Below are positions 39,479 through 61,280 of a stretch of DNA of 64,000 nucleotides, one piece after another; position 1 is the first letter of the stretch; each line of letters starts with the position of its first letter. The position numbers were made by a program, and so were the translations under genes. The notes under the pieces are model-generated. The model had not been told where the DNA came from. It was given only the letters and a program-made list of their open reading frames with translations, and did not search any database. Source of the stretch: an uncultured virus (IMG/VR IMGVR_UViG_3300043543_000740) (Duplodnaviria; Heunggongvirae; Uroviricota; Caudoviricetes); the IMG/VR virus record IMGVR_UViG_3300043543_000740; one strand, given 5' to 3'.

Positions 39479-39481
39479 CCG

Positions 39482-39910: not shown

Positions 39911-39913
39911 TCG

Positions 39914-40099
39914 TCACCCCGGCGGGACGAGGGCCCGCACGACCCGGAGGACGAGGTCGTCCACCGGCGACTTCGTGGCGCGGACGGCCTCGGTCAGCGC
40001 GTCGCTGTGCAGGATCGCCTTGACGAGCGGCAACACGTCGCGGAAGCCGGCCGGGTTTTGGCCGTGCAGGCCGATCAGTTGACGGAACAGGTCGAGCAT
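39914..40099 (-). CDS. Small hypothetical protein
   Basis: 61 aa, coupled ORF (TKSPVDDLVL). Confidence 0.55.
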   Translation of the reverse strand: MLDLFRQLIGLHGQNPAGFRDVLPLVKAILHSDALTEAVRATKSPVDDLVLRVVRALVPPG

Positions 40100-40479
40100 T
40101 ACTCCACCCCCACTTGCTTGGTGTGAATCCGCAGCACCTTGCGATACACGTCCGACCAGCGCCACGGCGGTTCCTTGCCGGGGGCCATCACCTCGTACAC
40201 GAAGGTCGTCGTGCCGACCGTCTCCCGGACCGTGTCGCCGCGTTCGGGCAGCACCGCGACCGCCCCCAGCACCAAGTCCGCGGCGTGGATCAGGAAGTCG
40301 CGGTCGGTCCACTCCATCCGCACGCCGCCGTACCCGTCGTCGAGCTTCAGGAGCGTCCGGCCGGCCGTGGCCTGAACCCCGACCTCGGCCGCCCCGCGGC
40401 GGTACACGACCGGCCGCGACGCGTGCTCCTTGAGCATGTCGGCCAGCCAGTCCGAGCCGGTGCGGAGCAGGTCGGGCAT
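40099..40479 (-). CDS. Head-tail joining protein
   Basis: Size and position after the capsid cement gene. Confidence 0.6.
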   Translation of the reverse strand: MPDLLRTGSDWLADMLKEHASRPVVYRRGAAEVGVQATAGRTLLKLDDGYGGVRMEWTDRDFLIHAADLVLGAVAVLPERGDTVRETVGTTTFVYEVMAPGKEPPWRWSDVYRKVLRIHTKQVGVE

Positions 40480-40486
40480 CGCGGTC

Positions 40487-40816
40487 TCACGGGCTCAGGC
40501 GGGCGCGGACGGTGGCGTCGGCCGCGGCCGCGGCACGGACGACCTTGCCGATCAGCTTGTTGCCGGCCGACACGTTGGTGGCGACGTTAGCCGCGTCGTC
40601 CCAGTAGATGAGCGTGCCGACTGCCAGCACGAGGCCGGCGAGCTTGGCGAAGTCGAACACCCCGCTGACCGCCAGCGCACCGGGCGTGTTGGCCGCGATC
40701 GGCTGCTTGGCGACGCCGATGAGGTCGCCCTGCACGACCACGTCACCGGCCGCCACCGCCGCCCCGGGCGTGTAGTCGATGCACTCGCCGTCGTGAACGA
40801 ACACTGCCTGTGCCAT
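40487..40816 (-). CDS. DUF2190-like capsid cement protein
   Basis: G..IDYT, VAAGDVV, GVFDF and YWD motifs. Confidence 0.8.
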   Translation of the reverse strand: MAQAVFVHDGECIDYTPGAAVAAGDVVVQGDLIGVAKQPIAANTPGALAVSGVFDFAKLAGLVLAVGTLIYWDDAANVATNVSAGNKLIGKVVRAAAAADATVRARLSP

Positions 40817-40834
40817 CGGTGAAACTCCGTGGGA

Positions 40835-44216: not shown

Positions 44217-44414
44217 TCAGTCGGCCCCCGGCGGAACGAGCTTGTTGAACCGCAGCCCGCGCTGCGGCTTCTTGGCGGCTTCCTTGGACGCGAGGTAGCG
44301 GTCGGCCTCGATCTGCTCGGAGAGCGGGTGCTGCTCGACGGAGCCGGCGTCGCCCGAGGCCTTGGCCGGTCCCTTCGCGTTCTCTGCGATGGTGTCGTCG
44401 AGTTCGTCCGGCAT
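44217..44414 (-). CDS. gpW-like head completion protein
   Basis: 65 aa between terminase and portal. Confidence 0.65.
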   Translation of the reverse strand: MPDELDDTIAENAKGPAKASGDAGSVEQHPLSEQIEADRYLASKEAAKKPQRGLRFNKLVPPGAD

Positions 44415-44613
44415 CGCTGCGCCGATCCGAAACTGGTGAATGGCCGCCTACTTTAGACCCTTGCCGGAGGGCGACCAAACTACGCAGAAATCTGGTAAAA
44501 CGGCGATGCGCAGAAGTGACCGTTGCCCGAGACGGGGAAGGGAATCGTAGTGGGCTCGGGAGATCACGCCGGAATTCGGCGTGTTGCCAAGCGCCCGGAT
44601 CACACGATTGGAA

Positions 44614-46881
44614 TCAGCGTCGTTTCGCCTTCTGGAGTTCTGCGAAGCTCACCCGCTCGCGTTTGGGCGCGGGCTTCACGTCCGTGCCCGGCAGGGAGCA
44701 GCCCTGCATCGACGCGGCCACGGCGCAGCCGACGACGCCGTCGAGCCAGTGGTTGTCGCTCCGCTCGGGCCGCATCTTCCACTCGTCCACCGTGCGCCCG
44801 CGCCCCTCGGTCTTCACGCGGTACTCGGCGGTCAGGTGGTCCGCGAAGAGCCGGTGCGTCTCGGCCCGGTCGCCGAAGAGCGACAGGCACCCGCGGTCGC
44901 CCAGCACCACCGCCAGCCGCGCCTGCACGAACGACTTCCAGTAGTTGGTGTCGAACAGGACGTGCCGGACGGCCCGCTTCCCCTGCACGTTCGGGACGCG
45001 CCAGTGGTGGCCGACGCGGTCGCCCGGCCGCCGCTTGTACTCGCTGAACGGCTGGCTCGACGCGCCGACAAACCGTCCGTGGGCCGGCGTCACGACGGAG
45101 GCGTGGGCGGACTCGCGGCAGAACTGGTACACGACGTCCGTTGAGGTGCCCCAGTTGGCGTCGATCAGGCAGCGCTCGATTCGCAGGACCGCGCCGTCGT
45201 CGCGCGGCCAGTCGCGGCCGAGGAGCGCGGCCGTCAACTTCTCCAGCCCCTGGTAGATTGCCCCCTCGATCCCCGCCGCGCCGGTCGCGACGGCCAGCGT
45301 CGGGTTCGCCTCGCGGAGAGTGAAGTACGGCCGCCGCTGGTCGGGCCAGGTGCCGTAATCCAGGACGTAGCCGGTGAAATCGTCCTCCCAGCCGCACGCG
45401 ACCCAGAACAGCAGGCTCCCCTGCACGTCCACGAACGCGGTCAGCCGCCCGCAGCCGATCGGCACCTCGCCGCGGCCGCGCCGGTTGAACTTACCCGCGA
45501 TCTGGTCGGCGGTGAGCTCGTCGTCGCCGGCGACCTCCTCGAGGAGTGGCTCGTTCTGGTACTCGGCGAAGAAGGCGGCCTCGTCCTGGAGCCGCAGGTT
45601 CATCGCGTGCTGGATGGCCGACAGTTCGTCGTGGTTGAACCGGGCCGGCCAGGCGACGCGCGACCCGGCGTCCATCGCCTCCCGATGGGCGCGGTAGAAC
45701 TCGGTCGCCTCGACGCCCTCACGCCCCTCCCGCAGGCTCTCGGCGCGGATCTCGGCGTAGCGCTGCCAGAGCTTCTCGTCGGCCGGGAACGAGTAGACCA
45801 TCTTGGTCCGCTCGCCGTTCCACTCCGGGTGTTTGTCGCGCGAGAGGATGTTGTCCGCCATGTCGCCGGGGCGGATGACCGTACACGGCATGATCCCGGA
45901 GATCTTCCGCCCCGGCCCAGCCAGCCCCAGCACCGCGCCGGCGAGGATGCTCTCGCGGGTGGCGCACTGGGACAGCGACCGCGCCGACTCGTCGGTCTGC
46001 GGGTCGTCGAGCACGACGAGCGACGGCCGCACGGTCTTGCCGTCGGCCCGCTTGTACTTCATGCCACGGATGCGGCCGGTGATCCCCGCCACCTTGACGA
46101 TCGCGCCGCTGGCGGTGCTGCCGGGGATCGTCGGCAGCACGACTTCACGCGCCGTCCAGCCGATGTGGGTCCGCTCGCCCTTGTAGAGCTGGCCGTTGCA
46201 GCGGTTGGCGATCCCGTCGAGGCAGTGGATCGGGTAGACGACCTCCGGGAAGTCTTCGAGCAGCAGGTCGTTGCCGTCGAGCTCCATCTTGATGGCGTCG
46301 AGCATGTCCATCGCGTGCCCCTCGTCCGACCCGATCAGGCAGACGAACTCGCGGTGCCCGTAGAGCACCGCCCAGATGCACGCGCACTCCGAGATCGAAC
46401 TCTTCCCCGAGCCCCGCGGCATCGCCATCGCGAACAGGCCGCCGCGCAGGACTGCCTGCTCGATCCGGGCAATCACCTTCAGGTGGTCGTCGGACCACGG
46501 CAGCGAGAACGTCAGCGGGAAGTAGCTGTCGCAGAAGAACCGGAAGTCCGACGCGGCCCGCTCCTTCCGCTCGCGGTTCACCACGTCCGGTAGCTCACCA
46601 ATATCCCGCCCCGCCAGCGACAGCGCGAGGTTCCGCGCCCTCGACCGGGTCTTCAGCTCCTCGTAGGGGTCGCCGGCCGGTTCCGGTTTCGGGGCGTGGC
46701 GCTGCGAGACGAGCCACGCGACGTAGCGGACGAGGTCGACGTGCTTGCCGTCGCCGACCCGCATGCCGGCGCGGGAGCGGTGACGGTAGAGCTGCCGCTC
46801 GCTGATGACCTCGCCGAGCGGAGTCGAGTTCAGCAACCGGCAGAGCTCCGAGGGCTTCAGCCGCCGCGGGTCAGTCGCCAT
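44614..46881 (-). CDS. Terminase large subunit (GpA-like) with N-terminal HTH extension
   Basis: MPRGSGKS, VVLDDPQ, EYQNEP, VDVQ and NHWLD motifs. Confidence 0.92.
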   Translation of the reverse strand: MATDPRRLKPSELCRLLNSTPLGEVISERQLYRHRSRAGMRVGDGKHVDLVRYVAWLVSQRHAPKPEPAGDPYEELKTRSRARNLALSLAGRDIGELPDVVNRERKERAASDFRFFCDSYFPLTFSLPWSDDHLKVIARIEQAVLRGGLFAMAMPRGSGKSSISECACIWAVLYGHREFVCLIGSDEGHAMDMLDAIKMELDGNDLLLEDFPEVVYPIHCLDGIANRCNGQLYKGERTHIGWTAREVVLPTIPGSTASGAIVKVAGITGRIRGMKYKRADGKTVRPSLVVLDDPQTDESARSLSQCATRESILAGAVLGLAGPGRKISGIMPCTVIRPGDMADNILSRDKHPEWNGERTKMVYSFPADEKLWQRYAEIRAESLREGREGVEATEFYRAHREAMDAGSRVAWPARFNHDELSAIQHAMNLRLQDEAAFFAEYQNEPLLEEVAGDDELTADQIAGKFNRRGRGEVPIGCGRLTAFVDVQGSLLFWVACGWEDDFTGYVLDYGTWPDQRRPYFTLREANPTLAVATGAAGIEGAIYQGLEKLTAALLGRDWPRDDGAVLRIERCLIDANWGTSTDVVYQFCRESAHASVVTPAHGRFVGASSQPFSEYKRRPGDRVGHHWRVPNVQGKRAVRHVLFDTNYWKSFVQARLAVVLGDRGCLSLFGDRAETHRLFADHLTAEYRVKTEGRGRTVDEWKMRPERSDNHWLDGVVGCAVAASMQGCSLPGTDVKPAPKRERVSFAELQKAKRR

Positions 46882-47083
46882 GCGCGTCCTCCGCCACCAG
46901 CCACGCCGCGTAGTGAACCAGGTTGATCGTCCCGTCCGCATTGGTCGGCGCACCGGCGTCGATGTCCGCCCGGATCATCGCCTCCGTCACGCCGAACCCG
47001 CCCACCCGCGCGAGCATGCGCGCGGCGTCCGCGACGGGCATCGCGGCGGGGTTGAGCACGGGCTTCGCCTCGTCGGGCGGCAT
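46871..47083 (-). CDS. Small HTH protein, terminase small subunit-like
   Basis: Overlaps the terL start; paralog of 1-216. Confidence 0.65.
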   Translation of the reverse strand: MPPDEAKPVLNPAAMPVADAARMLARVGGFGVTEAMIRADIDAGAPTNADGTINLVHYAAWLVAEDAHGD

Positions 47084-48182: not shown

Positions 48183-48183
48183 A

Positions 48184-48765: not shown

Positions 48766-49137
48766 TCAACGTGCGCCCTCCGACGCGACGTGGGCCGACG
48801 TGGGCGAACGGGCGGCCTCCGGGGCGAGGAACCGGACCGGCTTGCCCAGCGCGCGGGCCATCGCGATCTCCTCCCGCACCCCGATGCTCTCCCGCCACCC
48901 GTCGAGCATCAGCACCGCGACCTCGTCGCACCGCTCCAGGTGGACCCGGTCGATGCGTTCCCAATACGACCATGCGGTCGGCAACTCGAACTCGATGAGC
49001 GAGTGGCTGTGGACGATCGGCGAGAACACGACCTCGCCGGCGCGGAGCAGCGCGGCGGTCGCCCGGCAGGCGGCGCGGAACCGCTCTTCGCGGACCGCGG
49101 GGTCGGGATGCGAGTATGGACTGGCGAGGTAGATCAC
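48766..49137 (-). CDS. DUF1937-like protein
   Basis: Paralog of 3206-3649. Confidence 0.8.
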   Translation of the reverse strand: MIYLASPYSHPDPAVREERFRAACRATAALLRAGEVVFSPIVHSHSLIEFELPTAWSYWERIDRVHLERCDEVAVLMLDGWRESIGVREEIAMARALGKPVRFLAPEAARSPTSAHVASEGAR

Positions 49138-49499
49138 GCGGACACCTCCGCGCCGGTCCGCTCGGCCTTGCGGCCGGTGAACTTCTCCCACCGCTGGACG
49201 ATGACGTCGCAGTACAGCGGGTCCAACTCCATCAGGTACGCCTTCCGTCCGGTCTGCTCGGCGGCGATGAGCGTGCTGCCGGAGCCGCCGAACAAGTCGA
49301 GAACATGCTCACCCTCGCGGGACGAGTACTGCATCGCCCGCACGGCCAACTCGACCGGCTTCTCGGTGAGATGCACCATCGACTGCGGGTTGACCTTCTT
49401 CACGCTCCACACGTCCGTGGCGTTGTTCGGCCCGAGGTAGACGTGCGCCGCGCCCTCGCGCCAGCCGTAGAAGCACCACTCGTGGTTGCCCATGAAGTC
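49134..49499 (-). pseudogene. 3' part of the interrupted ParB-DNA methyltransferase
   Basis: DFMGNHEW...DLFGGSGS matches the C-terminus of 4032-5342. Confidence 0.9.
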
Positions 49500-51245
49500 C
49501 CCTCCGGGTAGCCGTGTGGAGCCATCGGCGAACGCACGCTCCAGGCCCGCGTGTAGGTAGACTGTGCCCGTCTTGTCGTCGGGGTTGACCTCGATCTTCT
49601 CGACGAACGCGGCGAGCATCTGCCGGTCCGCGAGGTCGATGTCCGTCCGCGTCGCCAGGGCGTCGAGTTTGGCGAACTGCTCCATCGCCCAGGCCCGCAG
49701 ATCGGCCTCGGTGATGATCGGTGTGGCAGGTTCATCGGTGGGCTTCAAGCGGGCCTCCAGCACGTCGCGCTTGGCCTTCAGGTCGGCCAGGGTGGTCCGC
49801 AGTTCGTCCAGACCGTCGAACGTCGGGTCGGCCAGCATCGACACGGTCGCCTTGATCTTGCGGTTCAGCAGGTCGAGCTCGCGCTCGTCGCCCCGCGTCG
49901 GCTTGGCCTTCGCTCGCGGGGCCAGCACCGCTTTGACGAACGCATCGACCGCCTTCTCGACCGTGGCGTGGTCGCCCAGCAGCACCTTCCGCACAGCATC
50001 CAGCACGAACCGGTCGAGGGCCGGGCCGGGGACGTTCACCACCCGGCAGACCGTCTTGCCGTAGCGGTGGTAGCCCGAGCAGGCGTAGACGCGATAGCCC
50101 TCGCCGGTCGGGCCGGGCCAGCGGCGGTCGCGGATCGTGGTGAACGGGTTGCCACACCGCTTGCACACCAGCAGGCCAGCCAGCAGGGTGCGTTTGGTCG
50201 GCCGGGCGTTGCCGTGCTCGGCCCGCCGCTTGGCCACGGCCCGCTGGGCGGCCGCCCAGGTATCCTTGCTGACCAACGCCTCGTGAACGTCCTCGCTGAT
50301 GATCCAGTCGGCCTCGGTGTTGCGCTGCCACATCTTCTTCCGCTTCGGCTTCAGCACGCCCTGGCCGTCGAGGCCGAACAGGCTGCCCATCGTGTGGCGG
50401 TTCCAGACGACCGCCCCGCGATAGACCGGGTTGCGGATCAGCTTGGCGATGCGGGCCGTGTTCCACTTCTGCCCGCCGGGCGACGGGATGCCCTCGGCGT
50501 TGAACGTCTGCGCGATGTGGTGGAAGCCGTAGCCCTGCACGCACAGGTCGAACATCCGCTTCACCACCGCTACCCGCTCGGGCAGGCTCGGGACGTAGCG
50601 GATGATGTCGCTCTTGGCCTTCTTCAGGTTGACGCCCACCGGGACCACTCGCAGCAGTCGGCCATCCGGCCCGAACTCCTGCTTACTACCGTCGGGCATC
50701 CACCGCAGCGTGCGGAGCAGTTGCCCGTCGCCGGTCAAGTGCTGCTTGTCGTAGCCGTACGGGGCCATGCCGCCGGGCGCGGACTTGCGTTCGCGGATGT
50801 TCGAGATCTGGCCCCGGATGCTGTCGCGGGCGAGCTTGACCGAGTACTGGCGGGCCTGCCAGGATTTGACGCCCTGGATCAGTTCGCCCTCGTCGCCCTC
50901 GGGGATGCCGTCGGCAGTGAAGACCACGCCGACGCCGGCCAGGTGCAGGCGGTGCAGGTAGAAGCCGGTCTCGTTGGTGCCGCCCCGCGAGAAGCGGGAG
51001 ATGTCGTAGCACAGCACCGCCTCGAAGTCGCGGCCGTTCTCGGCGGCCTTCATCATCTGCTCGAAGGCGTCGCGGCCGCGGGCACTGGTGCCGGACACCG
51101 CGTCGTCGATGTACCAGCGCAGCACGCGGTAGCCGTGCTCGGCCGCCCAGCGTTCGACGGCGGCCTGCTGGTCGGGGATCGAGCGTTCCTGCATGTCGGT
51201 GCTGCGGCGCGCGTAGCCGACGGCCGGGATCAAGGTCTTGGTCAT
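49134..51245 (-). CDS. Large serine integrase of the satellite, reading in-frame into the MTase C-terminus
   Basis: YARRS, DISRFSR and CKRC Zn ribbon; junction STRLPGG-DFMGNHEW. Confidence 0.9.
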   Translation of the reverse strand: MTKTLIPAVGYARRSTDMQERSIPDQQAAVERWAAEHGYRVLRWYIDDAVSGTSARGRDAFEQMMKAAENGRDFEAVLCYDISRFSRGGTNETGFYLHRLHLAGVGVVFTADGIPEGDEGELIQGVKSWQARQYSVKLARDSIRGQISNIRERKSAPGGMAPYGYDKQHLTGDGQLLRTLRWMPDGSKQEFGPDGRLLRVVPVGVNLKKAKSDIIRYVPSLPERVAVVKRMFDLCVQGYGFHHIAQTFNAEGIPSPGGQKWNTARIAKLIRNPVYRGAVVWNRHTMGSLFGLDGQGVLKPKRKKMWQRNTEADWIISEDVHEALVSKDTWAAAQRAVAKRRAEHGNARPTKRTLLAGLLVCKRCGNPFTTIRDRRWPGPTGEGYRVYACSGYHRYGKTVCRVVNVPGPALDRFVLDAVRKVLLGDHATVEKAVDAFVKAVLAPRAKAKPTRGDERELDLLNRKIKATVSMLADPTFDGLDELRTTLADLKAKRDVLEARLKPTDEPATPIITEADLRAWAMEQFAKLDALATRTDIDLADRQMLAAFVEKIEVNPDDKTGTVYLHAGLERAFADGSTRLPGGDFMGNHEWCFYGWREGAAHVYLGPNNATDVWSVKKVNPQSMVHLTEKPVELAVRAMQYSSREGEHVLDLFGGSGSTLIAAEQTGRKAYLMELDPLYCDVIVQRWEKFTGRKAERTGAEVSA
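49498..49520. other. att junction (integrase-proximal)
   Basis: TC-N6-GGGTAGCCGTGTGGA, inverted relative to 60093-60115. Confidence 0.85.
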
Positions 51246-51311
51246 GGGTTCGTCTCCGGGTTGCGCACCGACGCCCCGCATGGGCGGGGCGTGGCGGCGG
51301 GTTGTTTGGAA

Positions 51312-51611
51312 TCAGGCCAGCGTGAACCGGCCGCGGGCGACCTTGTGGAACTTGGCATCCTTGCCCTTGGCCCGGATCTGTCGCAGTAGGGAGGCGTACA
51401 GGGTCGCGGCCGGGGTCTTGCCCGCCGGGCTGCTCCAGAGCCCCTTGGCCATCATCGCCTCGACCATCTCACCGCAGGTCATCGGCTCGCCGGCGTCGGC
51501 CAGGACGCGCTCGGCGGCGGCGATCTGGCTCAGCTTCTCGGCCGGGGCCGGTTGCGGTTCAGGCTTCTTCTTCGGGGCTGCCTTCTTCTTCGTGGTCGTC
51601 TTCGTCGCCAT
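51312..51611 (-). CDS. HARE-HTH-like protein
   Basis: GKTPAATLYASLLRQI; third paralog. Confidence 0.8.
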   Translation of the reverse strand: MATKTTTKKKAAPKKKPEPQPAPAEKLSQIAAAERVLADAGEPMTCGEMVEAMMAKGLWSSPAGKTPAATLYASLLRQIRAKGKDAKFHKVARGRFTLA

Positions 51612-51942
51612 CGTGGTTCTCCCGCATCGGGTCGTCGTGGTCGCGGGGCGACGATCCCTCCGCGTCAGGACAGTCAGTTACAAGCCGGTTCGCCCCGGTT
51701 CCAGCGACTTCCGGCCCGATTCCGGGAGATTCTTCCGGGGCCAGCAGGTGCTTCCGACCCGCCCGGATGTCGGCCTCGAGTTGTTTGAAGAACCGCCACT
51801 CCCACAACGGCACCAGCACCACGTCCGCCTTGCCGTAGCGGGTGATGACGACCGGCTCGTCGGTGCGGGCGACGTGCAGGCAGACCATGCCCAGCCCGTC
51901 GCGCAGCAGCGACACCGCCATCTTGTGCTCGGTCGGCTTCAT
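51559..51942 (-). CDS. Phd/YefM-like antitoxin or regulator
   Basis: EPVVITRYGK..VVLVP; the C-terminal tail is doubtful. Confidence 0.6.
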   Translation of the reverse strand: MKPTEHKMAVSLLRDGLGMVCLHVARTDEPVVITRYGKADVVLVPLWEWRFFKQLEADIRAGRKHLLAPEESPGIGPEVAGTGANRLVTDCPDAEGSSPRDHDDPMRENHDGDEDDHEEEGSPEEEA

Positions 51943-52027
51943 GGTTCCTTTCCGGGTTTGGCTCCCCGCGATGAGGTCGGGCGGAACAGGCACGGGGAAC
52001 AAGACACACATCTTGTGACCAACAAAA

Positions 52028-52120
52028 TCCGGACCTGTACAAGAAGGAAACTGTGCTTACCCCGGTCGGTGTTCCGCGTGCCAATTTTTCTTTTCGATCC
52101 GGCCGGGAAGGAACCATTGG
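52028..52120. other. Satellite copy of the cos-like conserved site
   Basis: TCCGGAC..AAACTGTGC..TGTTCC..GGCCGGGAAGGAACCATTGG. Confidence 0.45.
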
Positions 52121-52178
52121 CCAGTTGTTGCGTGTGCAACACCTGATCCATTTGAATCACCCGGTCCGGCGGGTTGTC

Positions 52179-52368
52179 TTCCACACGGCTACCCCGCGAC
52201 CTCTCATCGTGCCGCGCGTGCTTGTGCGCGCTTCCTATACCCGCCCCCCGGGGTGCGTTCACGCACCCACGGGGGGTATAAGGGGGGTGCGCGCACACAC
52301 ACACAGACACCCGAGGCGGGTCAGCAAGACGCCGGGAGGAAGTTTCCACACGGCTACCCCGCGACCTC
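52179..52368. repeat. Two 25-bp direct repeats containing the att arm, flanking a long imperfect palindrome (candidate ori)
   Basis: TTCCACACGGCTACCCCGCGACCTC at 52179 and 52344. Confidence 0.75.
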
Positions 52369-52381
52369 ATGAACGCGGTCA

Positions 52382-53971
52382 TCACTCATCCTCCGGCTGG
52401 GGTCGCGTGGCGAACTGGACCGGCTGGTTGGCTCCGAACTTCCAGCGGTGGACGAGCCCGGCGGCCTCGGCCTGCTTGAGCAGCTTCTTGGCCAGCGGTT
52501 CGGGCACATCCGCCTCCGTGGCCCGGTGGACGATGCGCGCCGTCATGGCGGGCGTCTTGGTCACGAACGCCGCCACGAACGAAGGGACGGTCCACTCCGG
52601 CTTCGACGGCTTGGCCGGCTCGGGCTGCGGGGTCGGCTTCGGCTTGCGGCGGAGCTTCTCGGACTTGAGGTCGGACGGGTCGAGCGCGTCCTCGACGGTC
52701 CAGACCGGGAACGACCAGCGCAGACACCTGGGTTCGATCGGCGGCCACGAGCGGACGGCGGCGTCGAGGACGGCCACTCCGGGCTCCTCGTGCGGACGCA
52801 GGACGAGGTGCGTGTCCGCCGCACGCGACTGCGCCCCGGCCCCCGCGCCGACATCCGTGACCGCCTTGCCCGACTGGTTCCCCTTGGTGCTGTGGTGGAT
52901 CAGCACGAACGCGCACTGCAACTTCGCGGCATAGGCGTCCAGCACGTTGTACACCTGGGCCATCGTGCCGTTGTCGTTCTCGTCCGTGTCCCTCGGCATC
53001 GCCCGGTAGAAGGCGTCGATCACGACTAGCTTGTACCTGCCCGGCTCGATCCGGCTGAAGCACGGCCCCAGGCCGAAGATGTCTTTCAGCTTGCCACGCA
53101 GGTTCACGATGTCGATGCGGTCGCCGCACTCGGCGAGCGTGATGCCGCGGGCCTCCATGACCTTCGGGATGCGGCCGGCCGACGTTTCCTTGTGCAACTC
53201 GTTGTCGATGAGCAGCACCCGGCCCTGTTCGCACGGGAACAGATCGAGCCACGGGCGGCCGGTCGCCACGGCCAGGGCGAGGTCGCTCACCAGCCAGGAC
53301 TTGCCGACCTTGGGCGAAGCGATGACGTTCAGCGTCTCGCCTTCGCGGAGCAGCCCATGCACGACCGGCGGTCGCAGGTGCGGATACCGCATGACGAGTT
53401 CGCGGAGCGACTGGATGGGAAACTCGTCCGGCTCCGACTTGGCGGGTGTCGGCACCGGCTTGGTCCCGGTGCGAAGCCACTCCAAGTTGCCGGGCTTCTT
53501 GGTGAGCGGTGCCGGCTCGGGTTCCGGCGGTTCGTCCCAATCGTCGTCGGGACGGGGTGGTTCGGTGGGTTGGTCGAAGTCGATCGGCTCGGCCGCCCAG
53601 CGTTCGACTCGAGTGAGCCAGCGTTCCAGTTCCACGCCGAAGTCGCGCTCCTCGGCATCGGGGTTGAACCACGCCTGCTCGACGAACGCCAGCGCGTGAT
53701 GCCGACCGCGCAGTTGAGCCGCCAGAACCTCGTGGCCCGGCGTGTACCACTCCGCGCCGTCACGCTCGACCCGCGCGTTCTCCCGGGCGATCTGCCGCTG
53801 CTCCTCGACGAACTGGATCACCTCGATGTCCGGCCGGAGCCACTGCGACGCCTCGCGGGCACCGAGGAGAAATCCCTCCCGATAGGCATGCTCGGCCTGC
53901 TCCCGATGCGGATGGCCCTCGGGCAGCACGGAATCGCCGTAGTAGGGCACCATTTCAGTTGCGTTCGACAC
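52382..53971 (-). CDS. AAA_25 / RepA-like helicase
   Basis: ASPKVGKS, LIDNE, VVIDAFY and LIHHSTKG motifs. Confidence 0.85.
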   Translation of the reverse strand: MSNATEMVPYYGDSVLPEGHPHREQAEHAYREGFLLGAREASQWLRPDIEVIQFVEEQRQIARENARVERDGAEWYTPGHEVLAAQLRGRHHALAFVEQAWFNPDAEERDFGVELERWLTRVERWAAEPIDFDQPTEPPRPDDDWDEPPEPEPAPLTKKPGNLEWLRTGTKPVPTPAKSEPDEFPIQSLRELVMRYPHLRPPVVHGLLREGETLNVIASPKVGKSWLVSDLALAVATGRPWLDLFPCEQGRVLLIDNELHKETSAGRIPKVMEARGITLAECGDRIDIVNLRGKLKDIFGLGPCFSRIEPGRYKLVVIDAFYRAMPRDTDENDNGTMAQVYNVLDAYAAKLQCAFVLIHHSTKGNQSGKAVTDVGAGAGAQSRAADTHLVLRPHEEPGVAVLDAAVRSWPPIEPRCLRWSFPVWTVEDALDPSDLKSEKLRRKPKPTPQPEPAKPSKPEWTVPSFVAAFVTKTPAMTARIVHRATEADVPEPLAKKLLKQAEAAGLVHRWKFGANQPVQFATRPQPEDE

Positions 53972-54125
53972 GTTGCACCTCCTCCCGGCCGCGGAGCCAC
54001 TGGGCCAGGAGCCATGCCGCCAACGCCTCGGCGCGCCGCTCGACGCGGGCCTGGGCCTCGGGCGCGGGGTCGCTGAACGCCACGGTGAACGTGAACGAGC
54101 CGATCTGCGGGTTGGTGTCGGACAT
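53955..54125 (-). CDS. Small hypothetical protein (56 aa)
   Basis: GAGAGG RBS, MSDTNPQIG; overlaps the helicase start. Confidence 0.5.
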   Translation of the reverse strand: MSDTNPQIGSFTFTVAFSDPAPEAQARVERRAEALAAWLLAQWLRGREEVQRVERN

Positions 54126-54259
54126 GGCCCCTCTCCTGTGCCGGTCCTGCCGAGGCAGGGATGAACCCCACGGCGGGGTTCGGCGACGGCTTGCCGGGTC
54201 GGCAAGTCGCGTTCGCCAGAGGCGAAGAGGGTCGGTCGATAGGTTGTGTCAGTGGGCTG

Positions 54260-56102
54260 TCAGTTCTCCCCTTTGGCCTTGTACGCGGCCCGGTGGTCGG
54301 CCAGCGCGGCCCCGTAGTCGAAGTAGACCCGCCAGGACACGGCCAGCTTATTCGGCTCCGCATCCATGCCGAAGAACTCGACGTTCGGCGACTGAACACC
54401 TTGCAGGAAGGCGACGATCAGCGGGGTGTCGGCCGGCCCGGCGAACAGGTACCACGCCTTCGCCGAGGTGCCGCTGAACCGCCCCGCGTTCGACAGTCGC
54501 GGCTCCACTTCCAGCGTCACGGCGTTCTTGAGGGCGTTGCCGGTGGGCACGTCGTTGTTGGCCCGCTGCAGAAAGTCGCTCATGAGCAACTCCTTGGCGG
54601 TCTGCTGCAACTCCGGCGGCACCAGCAGCACGCGCGGCCGGATGTCCAGATCGCGGCCCTCGCCGTCGCGCTGGCTCATCATCTTGGCGATGCCCGCCCC
54701 CAGCGACGCGCTGGACAACGCCGTGGCCGTCCCGGTGTCGTAGTTGGCGTGGCCGCCGCTGAAGAAGTTCCCGGCGTTGGCCAGCAGCACCTGGTACACG
54801 AGGTCGCTCAAGGACCGCATCGCCGCCCGGCCGAGGTTCCGGGCCGTCTCGTCGAACAACGATAAATCGTCGTTCACAACATCCCTGCGGTCGATGCTGA
54901 GCATCTTGGCGAAGGTGTCGATGCGGAACGGGTAGGTCATCTCCTTGATGGAGCCGTGCTTGATCTCGCCGCCGGGGGCCAGCTGGGTGAGGTCCCCCAC
55001 GTCACTACCCCGCACCCCGGTGTGCGGCTTGAAGTCCGTCGCCGACTTGATGCCCGCGAACGACCGCCACGTCGCCGGCGTCTCGGTGTAGGCGTCCATC
55101 AGCAGCTTGTTGGCCGCGTCACCCAACGCCACCGGCAGTGAGTAGGTGGACAGCGCGGCGCGGATCAGGGCGTCCCGGCTGCTGGGAATGTCCCGGCCGT
55201 CGAGTTGCAACGCCGCCCGGCACAGGTCGATCAGGTTCGTGGCCCGGAGGTCGCGGGCCTGCTGGGCTGCCGTGGCCCCGAGGTGCCGTTCGGCGAGGTG
55301 TTCGTAGCCCATGTGGCTCAGCACCGCCGCCTCCAGCGTCTGTCGGGTCGTGGTGAACGTCCGGCTGTGGATCGTCGTCACCTGCGGCCGGCTGGCACGC
55401 AGGACTTCGAGCCGCGTGCGGCGGACATCCCAGCCTTCCACGATGGCGCGGGCCTCGATGTCGCCGAACTGCCCGCCGCACGCGGTGCGGATGGCGTGGA
55501 CCCGCTCCGTCTCGGCCAGGGCCGCCGCTCGGATGTCATCGGCCGTCTGCGTCTCGTTCATGGTGCTCTCCTTCCCTTGGGCCGCGATGGCGACCGACGT
55601 GTTCGCATCGGCCCCGATGGCGACGATGCTCACCTCCCGCAGCACGCCGGCCTTGACCAGCGTGAACCCACTCCGTCCGGCGGTGATCGCCCGGCCGTTC
55701 ACCTGCACGGATTCGCCGCCACGAACCCGCTCGTAATCGGTAGGCATCACGCCGACCGATGCTTGGAACTTGAACCCGCCCCGAGCGAGTTCAACCACCT
55801 GCCGGGCCGCCTCGGTCACGCCGGTAAGCGTGCCGTGGACGAGCAGCTTGCCGTCGATCACCTGCGCGCGGCCGTGCCCGACGATGCCGTCGAGTGTGGC
55901 GTCGTGGTCCGCCAAGAGGCTGATCTGCTCGGCTCCGGCATCAAGCCCCGCGAGGTCGATGGCAACCGGCCCCCAGCCCGGCACCGTCATCAGCCCGCCC
56001 GTGTACGCCACGATGGAAACGCTCGGCGGTTTGCCGGACGCGGCTTGAATCTCGACCTCGGCGGATGACAGCAGGATTTCTTGAGACGCAGTGGAACGCA
56101 TG
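54260..56102 (-). CDS. Satellite protease-major capsid fusion
   Basis: Homologous to 40835-42790 (AYTGG, QASVG, GGEIKHG, NDDL). Confidence 0.88.
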
Positions 56103-56392
56103 AGGTGACCGACCTCCCCGGAACGACGGAACGGAAGCAACCGGTCGGGCACGGTGCCCGCCGGTCGAGGGGTGGTTGGATGGGTGGGTCGTTGGGTTGG
56201 GTCGGTCGGTCGATGGGTTCGTTCGGGTCGTCAGGGTGGGAAGGTTTGCTCCCGGTCCTTGGCCGTCATGGCGCGACCGTTCCCCGACTGGAAGAATTGT
56301 AGCGGATGTACACCTTGACGACAAGCCCGGGAGATGATTTTCTTTCGTATAACAATGTTCTCATCGAGAAAGGCATCCCGAGAGTACTTGCC

Positions 56393-59300
56393 ATGCGTCG
56401 TTCCCTATCGTCCTGGGCCAAGAGCATCTTCCCGACCGCCCCGACTCGGCCGATCCGTAAGCCTCGTTCCTTGACCCTGGAACAGTTGGAAACGCGCGAC
56501 TGCCCGACCGTCCTGCCGCCGGGCGGCCCCGAACCGCAGCCGCCCGGCCCCGGCTTCCCGCCGGTAGCCAACCCGGACCACTTCGCCTTCGCTCCCGACG
56601 CGCCGATCCGCATCAGCGTCGCCGACCTGCTGGCCAACGACACGGCCGCGCCCGGCGTGCCGCTGACGGTCGAACTGCTCGATAGCCCCGCCGGCGGGCA
56701 ACTCGACCTGATCGACGTGGGCCTGTGGGAGTACACGCCCGGCACCGGTTTCAGCGGCAGCGACGCTTTCAGCTACCGCCTCTTCGACGGCACCGATTAC
56801 AGCCTGCCCGCCCTCGTGACCTTCGAGCAGCAGCCCACCCCGCCAAGCACACCAGCCACACCCACCGTCACCGACGTGACCGAGGCGTGGCTGACCGGCT
56901 TCGAGGATGAGGCCCTCGGCAGTGTCACCGTCGCGGTGTTCGAGACGGCCGAGGCGGACGTGCTCGACTGGACCGCCAGCATCGACTGGGGCGACGGCAC
57001 CACAACCACCGGGCAGATCGTGGCCGACGGCGACGGCCGGTTTCGCGTCGTGGGCGAACACACCTACGACGCGTGGGGCCTGTACCTCGTGCAGGTCACG
57101 CTGACCGACACGGTCGAGGAGACGCACGACCTCTACAACCTGGCGAGCATCCAGTTCCGCAACTACACTTACACGTTTACCGACCCGATCGGCAACAGCA
57201 CGCAGTTCGTCTTCGCCGAGGGCTGGCAACTCACGCAGGAGATCGACCCGCTCGGGAATTCGACCTTCTACAGCTACACCACCGACGGCCTGCTCGCCAG
57301 CCGCACCGACCGGCTGGGCCGGGCCATCACCTTCGACTACGGCACCGACGGCGTGCTCCTGAGCCAGACGTGGCTGGCCGCCGACCTGACCACCGTGGTG
57401 GACACGCTGTCGTTCAGCTACACCAGCGACGGCCTTTTGCTCAGTGCGAGCAACGGCGTCGGGGCGTACACATTCAGTTGGGCCGACGGGGTGCTGACCG
57501 GCGTGACCAACCCGTTCGGGGTGACGCTGACGTTCGGCTACGACACCGACGGCCGACGGACCTCGGTGGCCGACTCGTTCGGCGGGCTGATCACCTCGAC
57601 CTACACCGACGGCCTGCTCAGCAGCCGGACGCTCGTGGCCGGGGCGTTGAACCTGCGGGTCGATCTGGGCTACGACGCCGACGGGGTGCCGACCCAGATC
57701 AGCCGGTTCGCCGGGCCGCTGCAGGAGTTGGTGTCGCAGACGGAGTACGCCTTCGCGCAGGGCTTGCTCGCCTCGATCACGCATCGCGGCGCGGGCGGGG
57801 TGATCCTCGACCAGTTCCTCTACCAGTTCGACGAGGACGGCTTCCTCTCGCAGATCACCTCCGACTTCGTGGGCGAGACCGACTACGCCTACGACGCCGA
57901 CGGGCAGTTGACCGGCGAATCGTCAATCTTGGTGTCCAGCACGTTCAGCTACGACGCCAACGGGAACCGGGTGGGCGGCGGGTACGTCGTCGGGCCGGGC
58001 AACCGCCTGCTGGCCGACGGCACGTGGAGCTACAGCTACGACGCCGAGGGGAACCTCGTCGGCAAGACGCACCTCGTGACCGGCGATAGTTGGACCTACA
58101 GCTACGACCACCGCAACCAGATGACCCTGGCCGAGAAGCGTGACGCGAGCGGGTCGGTGGTGCTCTACGCAGTCTACAAGTACGACGTGTTCGGCAACCG
58201 CATCGAGAAGGCGGTGGACTGGGACGGTGATGGACCAAACACGCCAGTCATGACGCGGTACGTGCTTGACGGCTGGAACAACATGAAGCCGACGCCGGTC
58301 GGCAACGAGCACTTCGACGTGTACGCCGAGTTGGACGGCACGAATCAGTTGATCGCCCGGTATCTGCACGGCGACGAGTTCGACCAGACGTTCGCGCGGG
58401 TGTTGGTGGACGGCAGCACGCCCGAGGTCCACTGGCTGTTGGCCGACCACCTGAACTCGGTGCGTTTGGTGCTGGACGAGAGCGGCGCGGTACTCGACCA
58501 GATCGCCTATGATGCCTTCGGCAATATCGTGGCGCAGCTGAACCCGCTGCTCGTTAACCCGATCCTGTTCGCCTCGCGCGAGTTCGACGCCGAGACGGGC
58601 CTCTACTACAACCGCGCCCGCTACCTCGACCCCACCACCGGCTGCTGGACCACGCAAGACCCGCTCGGCTTCGCCGCCGGCGACGCCAACCTCTATCGCT
58701 ACCTGAACAACAGCCCGACCCTTGCCACCGACCCGAGTGGCTTGATCTGGTATCCGGGGAAGTATCTGTACCAGATGTACAGCGAATACCGACGGGGTCA
58801 GGAACTGGATCGCCAGATTAACCAGCATCGTGCCACGCAAAACTTACCGCCACTCCCGCCGCCGCCTCACTGGGCACGAGTGGCTGTCACGGAGTTTGGT
58901 GATGGTCTGCGGATCGGGTTTCAAGCCAACGTGAATGCGGTAGCGACGGCCGGACGTTCGTTGGTCACCTTGGGTATCTGGGCCGAGCCGTGGGAAGTGT
59001 GGGCAGTGGATGACGTCGATCGGCCGTTCTACGAGGATGGGTTTTTGGCTGCACGCTTCGGCTGGGAGTTGCTGCCGACGGCGGGGATTGGCAAGCTGAC
59101 GCAAGTGCCGGGTCAGATGGGTCGCTGGGGCCGGTACGCTCTGTACTGGGACGCTGGCCAGAATGTTGTCCAGGTCGGTCGGGGTGGTTATGATATCTAC
59201 GAAAACGGCCTGACCTGGACGAATGGCCTGCAAGTCGGCGGCCTGCTCGGACTGGGCGGCAACTACACCACTTGGCGGAGGCTGCCGAGTGTAGCTCCAG

Positions 59301-59602
59301 CAGGTAAGGGGGGAAGAGGGGACATCATGCGGATGGCCCCGTCTGATGCCCCTCGGTCTGCCGCCGAGGCCGCCTTGCGACGGGAAGCAGAATTGCGACA
59401 GCGAATCCTGGCAGATCGTCTTGCTGAGTTAGGTCACGGTGAGGGTGGTGCTGTCGGAAAGGGAGCGACCCGCCTTCCTCCTGAAGCAGCGAATGATCCC
59501 ACGGCCCGAGGTATGTGGGAAGAGTTGCAAAGGATTCGTCGCCAGATTGCTGACCTTCGCCGTAACCCGCCTTCTGGCCCCCGTGAAATGCTGGAACCTT
59601 GA
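56393..59602 (+). CDS. Rhs/YD-repeat polymorphic toxin with planctomycete export motif
   Basis: LEQLETRDCP, Ig-like domains, YD repeats, GLYYNRARY..DPLG..NLYRY..DPSGL. Confidence 0.92.
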   Translation: MRRSLSSWAKSIFPTAPTRPIRKPRSLTLEQLETRDCPTVLPPGGPEPQPPGPGFPPVANPDHFAFAPDAPIRISVADLLANDTAAPGVPLTVELLDSPAGGQLDLIDVGLWEYTPGTGFSGSDAFSYRLFDGTDYSLPALVTFEQQPTPPSTPATPTVTDVTEAWLTGFEDEALGSVTVAVFETAEADVLDWTASIDWGDGTTTTGQIVADGDGRFRVVGEHTYDAWGLYLVQVTLTDTVEETHDLYNLASIQFRNYTYTFTDPIGNSTQFVFAEGWQLTQEIDPLGNSTFYSYTTDGLLASRTDRLGRAITFDYGTDGVLLSQTWLAADLTTVVDTLSFSYTSDGLLLSASNGVGAYTFSWADGVLTGVTNPFGVTLTFGYDTDGRRTSVADSFGGLITSTYTDGLLSSRTLVAGALNLRVDLGYDADGVPTQISRFAGPLQELVSQTEYAFAQGLLASITHRGAGGVILDQFLYQFDEDGFLSQITSDFVGETDYAYDADGQLTGESSILVSSTFSYDANGNRVGGGYVVGPGNRLLADGTWSYSYDAEGNLVGKTHLVTGDSWTYSYDHRNQMTLAEKRDASGSVVLYAVYKYDVFGNRIEKAVDWDGDGPNTPVMTRYVLDGWNNMKPTPVGNEHFDVYAELDGTNQLIARYLHGDEFDQTFARVLVDGSTPEVHWLLADHLNSVRLVLDESGAVLDQIAYDAFGNIVAQLNPLLVNPILFASREFDAETGLYYNRARYLDPTTGCWTTQDPLGFAAGDANLYRYLNNSPTLATDPSGLIWYPGKYLYQMYSEYRRGQELDRQINQHRATQNLPPLPPPPHWARVAVTEFGDGLRIGFQANVNAVATAGRSLVTLGIWAEPWEVWAVDDVDRPFYEDGFLAARFGWELLPTAGIGKLTQVPGQMGRWGRYALYWDAGQNVVQVGRGGYDIYENGLTWTNGLQVGGLLGLGGNYTTWRRLPSVAPAGKGGRGDIMRMAPSDAPRSAAEAALRREAELRQRILADRLAELGHGEGGAVGKGATRLPPEAANDPTARGMWEELQRIRRQIADLRRNPPSGPREMLEP

Positions 59603-59610
59603 GGAAGATC

Positions 59611-59943
59611 ATGATGGAAAGAAAGAACGGTCGAATCGTCGGCGGCTCTTTCGATGAGCTTGTGGCGATGCTATCTTCGTCCAATCACTTCGACCGGGCT
59701 GAGGCGGCCAGGCTGCTCGTCAACATGCGGAAGGAGGCCATCAAGGCATTACCCGCACTTCTGGCTCTGCACAATGACCCCTGTGATCTGGTTCGCATTC
59801 AAGTACCCCGTGCGATTATTCACATGGAAGCTCGCCCTGATGAGGCTGCTGAGGTTCTACGCTGCCTTTTGAATGACAAGAACAAGATCGTCAGGCTGTA
59901 TGCTGAAGAAGCGCAGCAGTTTCTCACCCAGCGAACGTCATAG
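59611..59943 (+). CDS. HEAT-repeat protein, putative immunity protein
   Basis: Directly after Rhs; LHNDPCDLVR / LLNDKNKIVR; lower GC. Confidence 0.65.
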   Translation: MMERKNGRIVGGSFDELVAMLSSSNHFDRAEAARLLVNMRKEAIKALPALLALHNDPCDLVRIQVPRAIIHMEARPDEAAEVLRCLLNDKNKIVRLYAEEAQQFLTQRTS

Positions 59944-60092
59944 CTCTTTGTGTGCTGCTCGTCCCGAAGTACGCCGCCGCCTTTTCACCCCCCGGAGTCC
60001 CAATCAAGAACACAGGCCGGGGTAGCTACCAGCCTAGCCTGAAAAATGTTCACATCCACACGTTTCCCCGTTCCCACTCGAACCCGACCCGT

Positions 60093-60115
60093 TCCACACG
60101 GCTACCCCGTGAATC
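60093..60115. other. att junction (distal)
   Basis: TCCACACGGCTACCC-N6-TC. Confidence 0.85.
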
Positions 60116-61060
60116 CTTGCGGGTGAGCACCGGGTGCTCCTTCACCCAGATGATCGCCTGCGAAAAGTACAACTCGCAGGCCTTCAGCACCGGCGGGTAG
60201 TTGGCGCAGTTGGCGTAGCCGCCCCAGATGTAGAAGCCGCGGCCGGGCTCCAGCACGCGGGCGAGGTTCCCGAACCACGCGGCCAAGAGCCGGTCGAACT
60301 CGGCGTCGGAGACGAAGTCGTTGGCGAGCGGCCGGTCCTTGGCGCGGAGCTTCTTCCCCGTCGGTTTGGCCTTCTCGGGGTGGCGCTCGACGTCGAGCTT
60401 CTGGTGGTGGGTGGTGCCGGCGAACGAGGAGAGGCCGGCGGCGATGGCGTTGTTGGAACGCGGCTCGACCTTCACGTTGTACGGCGGGTCGGTGTTCACC
60501 AGGTGGATGCCCGCGCCGCCGAGCAACCGGTCCACGTCCGCCGGCTTGCTGCTGTCGCCGCACAGGAGGCGGTGGTCGCCCAGCACCCACAGGTCGCCCG
60601 GTTTGGTCGTCGCCTCGTCCGGCGGTTCGGGCACCTCGTCCGGGTCGGTCAACCCGTCCTTCAGGGTCGGGTCGAGCAGCTTCGCCAGCTCGTCCGCGTC
60701 GAAGCCGAGGAGCGCGAGGTCGTAGTTGGCCTCCTTCAGCCCGGCCAGTTCGATCGGGAGCAGGTCGTAGTCCCACGTCGCCAGCGACGCCGTCTGGTTG
60801 TCGGCGATCCGGTAGGCGCGGATCTGCTCGGGGGTCAGGTCCGTGGCGACGTGGACCGGCACCTTCTCCAGGCCCAGCTTCAGTGCCGCCTTGTAGCGCG
60901 TGTGGCCGACGACGATGACGCCCTCGGCATCGACGACGATCGGCTGGCGGAACCCGAACTCGCGGAGCGACGCCGCGACCGCATCGACCGCGTCGGCGTT
61001 ATCCCGCGGGTTGCCGGGGTACGGCTTCACGTCGGTGATCTTCCAGAGTTCGATCTTCAC
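60114..61060 (-). pseudogene. 5' part of the interrupted ParB-DNA methyltransferase
   Basis: Matches 4032-5342 up to HPVLTRKD, then diverges. Confidence 0.9.
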
Positions 61061-61280
61061 AGGTCGTCCCTCCAGGTTTCGCCGTGGTACAGCTCGATGG
61101 CGGTCAGCTCGTGGGCAGGTCGCCTCTCGACTCCGAACGGCTCGGTCGGCACGGGGCGGGCGCGGCGCGTCCCGGCCTCGCTGAGCTAGGCCGGGCGGCC
61201 GACGCATCGAAGGCAATAGGGGCCGTGCGGCGTGTCCCGACCGCACCCCTCACATCAGCGCATGGAGCACCTCTCCGAAG

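Follow-up and report, generated by a model that had tools for sequence, protein, structure and literature searches.

The window analyzed here is a stretch of 64,000 nucleotides from an uncultured Caudoviricetes virus (IMG/VR record IMGVR_UViG_3300043543_000740), with a G+C content of ~69% and two related prophage segments, A and B, seen in Pfam and PHROG scans. It contains an element of 10,616 bp (49498-60113, with a 3-bp shared core) that splits the ParB-methyltransferase gene of a lambda-like prophage, segment B, within one Asp codon. We conclude that this insert is probably an integrative phage satellite that occupies a gene of its likely helper prophage and represents a planctomycete family apparently not described before. 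A sequence-only reading of the window had proposed a discrete integrative element nested in a prophage, with limits at 49500-60115 and the same length of 10,616 bp. Those limits fall within the 3-bp ambiguity of the ones we obtain from a paralogue, a virus record, and metagenome run contigs, and the nesting is as described, in a prophage type with which the element has its capsid, replicase helicase, and HARE-HTH genes in common.

Integration within the methylase gene

The two pieces of the methylase are found at the two ends of the element. The open reading frame (ORF) 60050-61246(-) has ParB_N and positions 1-91 of the methyltransferase profile (Pfam), and the last ~120 aa of ORF 49134-51281(-) correspond to the 3′ part of an N6_N4 methyltransferase, covering positions 139-220 of the 221 in the profile. 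Segment A has an intact paralogue (4032-5381). The first piece is 78% identical to it up to ...VLTRKD, and the second is 90% identical to it from DFMGNHEW..., and because the match ends and restarts at those residues we place the break inside one Asp codon.

The empty site can be observed directly. In the virus record G001 (49,536 bp), window positions 46000-49500 and 60106-64000 abut at 100% identity, and the methylase ORF is uninterrupted, 498 aa long, and reads ...VLTRKDFMGNHEW... at the joint. This is strong evidence. In addition, Logan contigs from two of four metagenome runs (X3 and X5) include the empty joint 49497->60114, skipping 10,616 bp with 3 shared letters; the shorter side of the joint has 22 letters in X3 and 40 letters in X5, which makes this second line of evidence modest. 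For all four runs the data are contigs, and among the joints listed for them there is no attP joint of the window copy. The evidence for excision of the window copy is thus the empty attB only, and the attP junction comes from a relative. Contig L201 (10,448 bp) is a circular permutation, across attP, of the element that is integrated in contig L200: L201 1-10237 equals L200 1078-11314 at 99.98%, and L201 10234-10448 equals L200 762-976 at 100%. L201 represents a family member, either as a circle after excision or as copies arrayed head to tail, with a capsid 67% and an integrase 75% identical to those of the window copy. As for L200 itself (11314-11546), its left flank is the methylase 5′ part but what lies right of the crossover is not the methylase 3′ part, which is either a rearrangement beside the element or a chimeric contig.

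The integrase carries Resolvase, Recombinase, and Zn_ribbon_recom domains at aa 20-431 of ORF 49134-51281(-), and together with short att sites, inverted arms, and a central dinucleotide these are the features of a large serine recombinase. It recombines a site in the helper's ParB-methylase gene with attP, in which inverted TCCACACGGCTACCC arms surround a GA core. On the coding strand, the reconstructed attB reads CTCACCCGCAAGGA joined to CTTCATGGGCAAC, and the reconstructed attP, with its 15-nt inverted arms, reads TCCACACGGCTACCCGGAGGGGA joined to TTCACGGGGTAGCCGTGTGGA. The attP is located inside the 3′ end of the integrase's own gene. Its P′ side codes for (D)SRGSRVERVGFEWERG, the native integrase tail; after integration this tail is attached to the N-terminal part of the methylase, and the integrase ORF continues in frame through attL into the methylase 3′ part, with a stop at 49134. 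Integration exchanges the last ~17 integrase residues for residues encoded by the target (121 methylase residues here), the truncated target gains the native tail, and excision restores the methylase exactly. All junctions examined have their crossover at the GA of an Asp codon. The tail encoded by the P′ arm is conserved as D-x-x-G-S-R-V-E-R-V-G-F-x-W-E, with codons that vary synonymously between relatives, and it is seen in native form on the integrase of the attP-form contig L201.

Could the element be mainly a regulatory switch for its host prophage, like developmentally excised elements, so that the methylase (or in relatives the large terminase subunit TerL, the portal, or the tail tube) is expressed only after excision, with no horizontal route? 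In its favour, every insertion falls inside a coding sequence, with reading frame and orientation matched, and the gene is recovered exactly when the element leaves. The model published for helper-embedded phage-inducible chromosomal islands (HE-PICIs) likewise proposes a cis-delay of the helper gene (PMC10111431). We find it quite improbable that this is the whole explanation, as it leaves unaccounted for a conserved replication helicase, a capsid gene under selection, a constant element size, and copies outside prophages. A switch is moreover compatible with the satellite reading as one of its steps, and not a true alternative to it.

The arm 15-mer has four exact copies in the window, versus 0.19 expected by chance. 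Two of them are the att arms. The other two are each contained in one of a pair of 25-nt direct repeats, 165 bp apart, that flank a palindrome just downstream of RepA; a GT/GC alternating tract also lies between the repeats (52179-52368). The same internal arm pair is found just after RepA in four relatives (L010, L011, L172, and L244), and one copy in L045. Additional arm copies at a distance from attP are unusual among serine integrases. The region (51943..52381) is probably non-coding, and it may be an origin or control region bound by the integrase or by another arm-recognising protein. An ORF called there (51939-52385, 'o148') was rejected as a gene, with weak and patchy conservation and being full of the repeats and the palindrome. 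In L244 (11296-11345 and 197), the P arm is directly followed by a P′-like arm with 2 mismatches, and another exact P′ arm is at the far end; this locus could hold two tandem satellites, or a satellite that has inserted into the attP of another.

Gene content and the capsid fusion

Read on the coding strand, the element has the order HEAT and Rhs (both on the opposite strand), capsid fusion, AAA_25/RepA, a region of ~440 bp, the Phd-like gene, HARE-HTH, and integrase (Table 1). All the genes named in the sequence-only reading (serine integrase, HARE-HTH, Phd-like protein, AAA_25, protease-capsid fusion, and Rhs plus immunity, the latter here the HEAT protein) are recovered by Pfam and PHROGs, the Phd-like one only below threshold. 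Also in agreement with that reading, no portal, terminase, connector, or tail family matches inside the element using Pfam and PHROGs.

Table 1. Positions of the features discussed in the text, in window coordinates except for the last row.
Feature	Position	Strand	Evidence and details
Left copy of the 3-bp crossover core = attL	49498..49500	.	Junctions versus intact paralogue; 49497->60114 joint; TCC on + strand, GGA of Asp codon on coding strand
attP P-arm 15-mer, inverted copy of the P′ arm	49506..49520	-	Exact copies; same arm at element ends in relatives
P′ side of attP	60050..60116	-	Arm 15-mer at 60093-60107(+), core at 60114-60116
Large serine integrase, 594 element-encoded aa	49501..51281	-	Pfam Resolvase, Recombinase, Zn_ribbon_recom; phrog_95 integrase
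HARE-HTH DNA-binding protein	51312..51677	-	Pfam
Small conserved protein, Phd/YefM-like	51559..51942	-	Sub-threshold Pfam: 25.1 bits versus cut-off 29.8
Putative control/origin region	51943..52381	.	Two perfect 25-nt direct repeats (52179-52203, 52344-52368) and palindrome (52244-52275)
AAA_25 / RepA-like helicase	52382..54205	-	Pfam, PHROGs
Protease-scaffold-major capsid protein fusion, satellite type	54260..56152	-	Pfam, PHROGs, clade, dN/dS
Rhs-repeat cargo protein, N-terminal Big_9/cadherin-like domain	56306..59602	+	Pfam
HEAT-repeat cargo protein, overlaps Rhs stop codon	59599..59943	+	Pfam
3′ part of split helper methyltransferase gene	49134..49497	-	Pfam, paralogue alignment, G001
5′ part of split helper ParB-N6/N4 methyltransferase gene	60117..61246	-	Pfam, paralogue alignment, G001
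Segment B PrimPol/PriCT replicase	61613-63964	-	
Segment B HARE-HTH gene, divergent	48101-48697	+	
Segment B gpA-type TerL	44614-46953	-	
Segment B lambda-family portal	42759-44216	-	
Segment B (helper's own) protease-capsid fusion	40835-42790	-	
Head/packaging block of surrounding prophage (tail tube, head-tail joining, cement, protease-capsid, portal, TerL)	38594..46953	-	Pfam/PHROG scans
Segment A intact methyltransferase paralogue	4032-5381		449 aa
Capsid-less RepA elements	L034 7885-12143; L043 8605-20351		Sites: helper capsid gene (~aa 425), portal genes (~aa 310)

Between the element's integrase and the prophage-type one of segment A (16006-17598), identity is only 23%. Its HARE-HTH protein is 55% identical to the helper's in that domain, with 73-75% nucleotide identity to helper copies. 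The Phd-like small protein is kept in relatives at 41-93%. The RepA of relatives is ~530 aa long, so that its true start in the window is probably near 53974, and its C-terminal (helicase) half shows 55-62% identity to the helicase part of PrimPol-AAA_25 replicases found in helper-type prophages elsewhere. The C-terminal ~200 aa (199 aa) of the Rhs protein have no family match in Pfam or PHROGs, and the adjoining HEAT-repeat protein would be a candidate immunity protein. Among cultured phages, the best capsid match is ~30% over half of the protein and the best integrase match is 27%, with no named phage relative.

The likely start of the capsid fusion is Met18, at 56101. The sequence-only reading had taken the fusion to be homologous to that of the helper, and we find 35% identity over 626 aa, and a full-length match of both proteins to phrog_4523, 'major head and protease protein'. 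The satellite fusions keep their protease, scaffold, and capsid parts colinear with the helper fusions. In the N-terminal protease part there are invariant His and Ser columns, which we assume to be the catalytic residues. In a capsid tree, 29 satellite-type and 13 helper-type rows fall on opposite sides of a branch with a Shimodaira-Hasegawa-like approximate likelihood ratio (SH-aLRT) support of 99; this was a quick IQ-TREE run on 54 rows with SH-aLRT only, after dropping 43 of the 97 capsid rows (near-identical IMG/VR rows at ~29%). The split holds for the six loci that have both types (window, L011, L095, L097, L099, and L102). Satellite capsid genes have dN/dS of 0.04-0.29 in 11 of 11 pairs (Nei-Gojobori), that is, they are under purifying selection. 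All this supports a capsid that is functional and separate from the helper capsids.

A planctomycete family and its competing explanations

We scanned three collections, genome_contigs with the RepA alignment, and viral_contigs and metagenome_contigs with the satellite-capsid alignment, and mapped the window proteins on the hits by tblastn, calling a capsid satellite type when it had at least 45% identity over at least 150 aa. The sequence-only reading had suggested looking for the same gene set in other genomes, and it is there: 112 loci have the satellite capsid type (17 genome, 15 viral, and 80 metagenome), a count that includes duplicate records such as L097/L207, L091/L101, L098/L099, and L096/L202. 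Where the contig is long enough, most loci have the gene order capsid-RepA-(Phd)-HARE-Int. The record titles are Gemmataceae, Planctomycetaceae, Pirellulaceae, and Phycisphaerae, plus one Pseudomonadales (L013) that we suspect to be a binning error. Thirteen elements measure 10.2-11.4 kb between arms in spite of their different cargo, and the cargo in the family includes SacI restriction-modification, an Eco57I-like methylase, a methylase with HEAT, cadherin/leucine-rich repeat proteins, transglutaminase, and Rhs. No relative examined has portal, terminase, or tail genes inside its arms. This is a large and apparently undescribed family in planctomycetes.

These relatives bear on the possibility that the element is a deletion remnant of a complete prophage inserted in another prophage. 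The capsid, the helicase, and HARE-HTH do have homologues in helper-type phages, and there are three rearranged contigs, L092 (5157-9146), L096, and L202 (both ~4800-8900), in which a satellite-type capsid gene comes after the methylase 5′ part and cargo, and is directly followed by the helper capsid 3′ part and cement, head-tail joining, or tube genes, with RepA, Int, TerL, and portal absent. These three look as if they arose by deletion, or by recombination, between satellite and helper. A remnant is nonetheless extremely improbable for the family as a whole: a compact module recurs at 112 loci across Planctomycetia and Phycisphaerae, within a tight size range and with its own conserved att arms; its capsid clade stands apart from the helper capsids; it exists as an attP-form contig; and none of the relatives examined has a portal, terminase, or tail gene inside the arms. 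The sequence-only reading had named such relatives as what would overturn it, and they do not.

Where does the family sit? We counted as helper-type genes the methylase, TerL, portal, capsid 3′ end, and tail tube, and find them at 37 of the 112 loci (5/17 genome, 15/15 viral, and 17/80 metagenome), 36 of the 37 being co-oriented with the element. Loci in which no helper gene is seen are for the most part on contigs too short for a judgement; when only loci of 12 kb or more are counted, the fraction is 25/42, or 14/31 without the virus-biased collection. The methylase is split at ~aa 333 (for example in L010, L013, L016, L019, L020, L090, L094, L186, L198, and L250), TerL at aa 316 (L011, L091/L101, L093, L102, and L220), the portal at ~aa 325 (L095), and the tail tube at aa 77 (L098/L099, L210, and L223). 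A reading of the integrase tails suggests the last codons of the helper capsid gene as a further site (L097/L207 and L075). The 35 integrase ORFs that can be followed past the crossover run into the methylase C-part (11), TerL (5), the tail tube (4), the capsid end (3), and other sequence (10), with one native tail (L201) and one native-like tail (L244).

Two loci show further interruptions of these target genes. In L194, the integrase tail after 13942 enters the methylase C-part, starting DYMGAHEWC, and the methylase is then broken by ~150 unrelated residues and picks up again at 14405-14722 (hMtase 341-446). An intein or another insertion into this gene may account for the break. In G004:C369:7707-11174, a helper-type TerL is split at ~aa 320-330 by ~1 kb, near the satellite TerL site, which could be a remnant or another small insertion.

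The sequence-only reading had the element targeting a conserved helper gene as attB. A prophage methylase gene is indeed the site used in the window, and it is the universality of the habit that does not hold. Several observations count against a satellite that depends on its helper. No helper-type gene is found at 17 of the 42 loci of at least 12 kb. Four copies that we examined (L012, L084, L045, and L018) lie among ordinary chromosomal genes; we read L012 and L045 as using secondary sites, because their sites resemble the methylase and the TerL site, respectively. At loci L071 and L073 the neighbours are an SU10-type capsid gene on one side and an SPP1-type portal gene on the other, and the orientation is opposite. 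A helper-type TerL is present elsewhere in 4 of the 5 genomes with non-embedded copies, a co-occurrence that is weak support because helper-type prophages are common in these genomes. Related RepA and Phd-like elements without a capsid gene are also embedded in helper genes (L034 and L043; also L032 and L064), so the capsid gene is not needed for embedding. One of them, L043, carries a type I restriction-modification system.

Other observations in the same direction concern packaging and the state of the window copy. No TerS-like family is found among the element ORFs or the small ORFs near the helper TerL (Pfam, PHROGs). No packaging signal was found, and blastn and blastn-short find no non-coding DNA common to the element and the rest of the window; the blastn similarity is coding only, HARE-HTH and capsid. 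Terminal direct repeats are absent in the genome loci L010-L089, in the viral loci L090-L109, and in the metagenome loci of at least 6 kb. The capsid gene, present in 21 of 29 reference Gram-negative phage-inducible chromosomal islands (PICIs), is reported there to be dispensable for transfer (PMC10111431).

Finally, the window copy could be a crippled variant. The statement in the sequence-only reading that the element supplies only its own capsid stands for the window copy and for L172, and not for most close relatives, which keep an ECF-sigma-like gene and a second gene upstream of the capsid. In the window copy, only ~150-200 bp separate the capsid gene from Rhs. As L172 has the same layout (capsid 92%, RepA 94%, and Rhs 85% identical), the variant without the two upstream genes has persisted. 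The second of these genes has no Pfam or PHROG match. Its AlphaFold model, from 10 sequences, has a pLDDT of 71.4 and a pTM of 0.67, and a Foldseek search of that model against the PDB reports nothing at E <= 0.001, the best match being a MerR-type regulator at E 0.15.

The lack of a cos or pac sequence and of TerS in our searches, the capsid-less relatives that embed equally well, the chromosomal copies, and the PICI capsid genes reported not to be required for transfer (PMC10111431) can all be explained if these are serine-integrase genomic islands for which prophage genes are safe and widespread att sites. Such an island would spread by riding in the prophage, and its capsid fusion would build no island shell, acting instead to interfere with the capsid of resident or incoming related phages, either by co-assembly or by competition. 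The cargo (SacI and type I restriction-modification, methylases, and Rhs) is also typical of defence or competition islands. We regard this explanation as unlikely, if a serious one. That 13 elements with different cargo all fall at 10.2-11.4 kb suggests a limit set by packaging, and the composite of helper plus 10.6 kb would exceed the helper genome by a quarter to a third. L201 may also be an excised form. The colinearity of the capsid clade with the helper fusions and the purifying selection on it fit either role, and speak against decay.

Under the satellite reading, events would proceed as follows. On prophage induction the composite would replicate, and helper transcription would read into the element. 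The element would then excise, and replicate with its RepA helicase from the adjoining repeat-and-palindrome region. Its own protease-scaffold-capsid fusion would form a shell sized for ~10-11 kb of DNA, built on the helper portal; the helper terminase would fill that shell, and helper connectors and tail would complete the particle. Only after the satellite leaves would the helper regain its methylase (or TerL, portal, or tail tube in relatives). The Rhs and HEAT proteins would be accessory cargo. Both the building of a separate satellite shell from the capsid gene product and the packaging of the element as such are inferences.

One can go further, tentatively, and propose as a possible though doubtful extension that these are 'shell-only' satellites, in between satellites that remodel the capsid of their helper and the capsid-forming PICIs (cf-PICIs). 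One polyprotein would build a small shell on the helper portal and exclude the helper genome, while portal, terminase, connectors, and tail would all be taken from the helper; the HE-PICI habit would have evolved convergently in serine integrases that have attP in their own ORF; and integration would at once rewrite the integrase C-terminus and gate the helper gene.

If these elements are satellites, they would be the first described in Planctomycetota, and the helper-embedded lifestyle would have arisen twice, with unrelated integrase families and in distant phyla, which suggests lodging in helper genes as a solution open to satellites in general. The family would offer a simple, one-polyprotein case in which to ask whether a satellite sets capsid size by its own shell protein alone. 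It also offers a group of related serine integrases that naturally use different sites in phage genes. Those elements that carry restriction-modification systems and Rhs proteins would in addition move defence or competition genes among these bacteria.

The surrounding prophages and the known satellites

Segment B is on the minus strand and extends from beyond 64000 to at least 32519. Its order is PrimPol/PriCT replicase, ParB-N6/N4 methyltransferase, DUF1937, HARE-HTH, TerL, portal, protease-capsid, cement, head-tail joining, tail tube, and further genes. Beyond the window, the record G001 shows that prophage B goes on with a helicase, RusA, DUF669, AAA_24, a sigma-like gene, an integrase, and DUF2924. 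Without the insert, prophage B would be ~29 kb if it ends at 32519, or ~41-43 kb if the genes down to ~20 kb are included (among them glycosyltransferase, He_PIG, and WD40 genes); with helper limits that are only approximate, the 10.6-kb element amounts to about a quarter to a third of the ~29-43 kb of its helper. Segment A, from 1 to ~18700, is colinear with the replication half of segment B, and terminates in a serine integrase and DUF2924 (16006-18170); the integrase of prophage B, as seen in G001, is 85% identical to that of prophage A.

Prophages A (1-18700) and B (~20400->64000) lie almost head to tail. Only the methylase of prophage B is occupied, and the site in A differs at 3 of 27 positions around the core. 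Prophage A has at 12646-15514 a pair of lower-GC genes (0.59-0.61), coding for a 680-aa protein with a QueC-like stretch and for a 278-aa protein, that have no counterpart in the prophage B extension (no tblastn match in L169) and may be a moron or a defence insert. Nucleotide-metabolism genes adjoin the methylases (308-1213, 3206-4035, and 48766-49191): an amidoligase, and a DUF1937/nucleoside deoxyribosyltransferase-like gene that is in both prophages, while a dATP/dGTP diphosphohydrolase N-domain gene is present only in prophage A. Their position hints at modified DNA bases. The region 19100-32513, between the end of prophage A and the tail genes of B, has an rve_3 transposase, a WD40 protein, a 1665-aa He_PIG/cadherin-repeat protein, and four glycosyltransferases, which may be host genes or the distal end of prophage B.

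How does the element compare with known satellites? It is a mobile element without a complete virion module (Pfam, PHROGs), as satellites in general are. P4-like satellites have Sid/Psu capsid-size and decoration genes, an alpha primase-helicase, and a tyrosine integrase, and no match to any of these families is found in the element with Pfam or PHROGs. The B. subtilis elements skin and SPbeta likewise use a large serine recombinase, insert into coding sequence, and restore it precisely when they excise. Their targets are host sporulation genes, whereas the targets here are prophage genes, and the elements described here bring replication and capsid genes with them. The PICI-like elements that Vibrio cholerae carries (PLEs) integrate in chromosomal repeats and remodel the helper capsid. 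With PLEs and with the marine virion-encapsidated integrative mobile elements (VEIMEs) the element shares a serine recombinase and the form of a compact replicative island; those are found in or near phage particles (PMC9618062). The VEIMEs differ in that they are reported without major capsid genes, packaged as concatemers in full-size capsids (PMC9618062).

The set of genes carried by cf-PICIs comprises capsid, protease, portal, head-tail connectors, and TerS/HNH. Of these, portal, connector, TerS, and HNH are not found in the element (Pfam, PHROGs), nor is any portal, connector, or terminase within the arms of its relatives. Like cf-PICIs, the element would supply its own capsid protein instead of remodelling that of the helper (10.1101/2022.09.08.507074). 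However, cf-PICIs are described there as encoding all capsid-formation and packaging proteins and stealing tails only, and the element here has the protease-capsid fusion alone. Gram-negative PICIs with a lone capsid gene, at 10-20 kb, are similar in combining an integrase and replication genes with a single major capsid gene as the commonest late gene (PMC10111431). As described in that source, they differ in their integrase and replication families, in a lambda E-like capsid without protease fusion, and in being chromosomal, tRNA-independent islands of Enterobacterales and Pasteurellaceae.

We found no literature that joins phage satellites with Planctomycetes, and in the helper-embedded literature none with serine integrases or Planctomycetota, as far as titles and abstracts show. 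But the proposal of the sequence-only reading that this is a different satellite type was overstated, as HE-PICIs that lie in helper late genes with a capsid gene of their own have been published (PMC10111431, Tommasini, Mageeney & Williams 2023). These HE-PICIs, known from E. coli, are reported in that paper to be ~11 kb and to lie co-oriented in the late genes of lambdoid prophages, at 14 sites in nine genes, with integrase subclades that track the sites; the founding one is inside the helper capsid gene and itself encodes a capsid protein.

Compared with that description, the planctomycete element differs in several ways. Its integrase is a large serine recombinase and not of a single tyrosine PICI clade. 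In place of the four-zone organisation with AlpA, Bro-N, and Pri-Rep it has HARE-HTH, a weak Phd, and AAA_25/RepA, and no AlpA, Bro-N, or primase domain matches in the element with Pfam or PHROGs. Its capsid is a protease-scaffold-capsid fusion in a deep clade of its own, its attP is inside the int ORF, and its hosts are Planctomycetota. The site in the window, a methylase gene between the replication and packaging modules, is not a classical late gene. On the other hand, the element is also ~11 kb, lies inside and co-oriented with a helper gene that its excision restores, and belongs with related integrases that use many sites in helper genes (here methylase, TerL, portal, capsid 3′ end, and tail tube). 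Helper-embedded, capsid-carrying satellites are thus already known, and judged by its genes and att sites the element described here would be their convergent, serine-integrase counterpart in planctomycetes.

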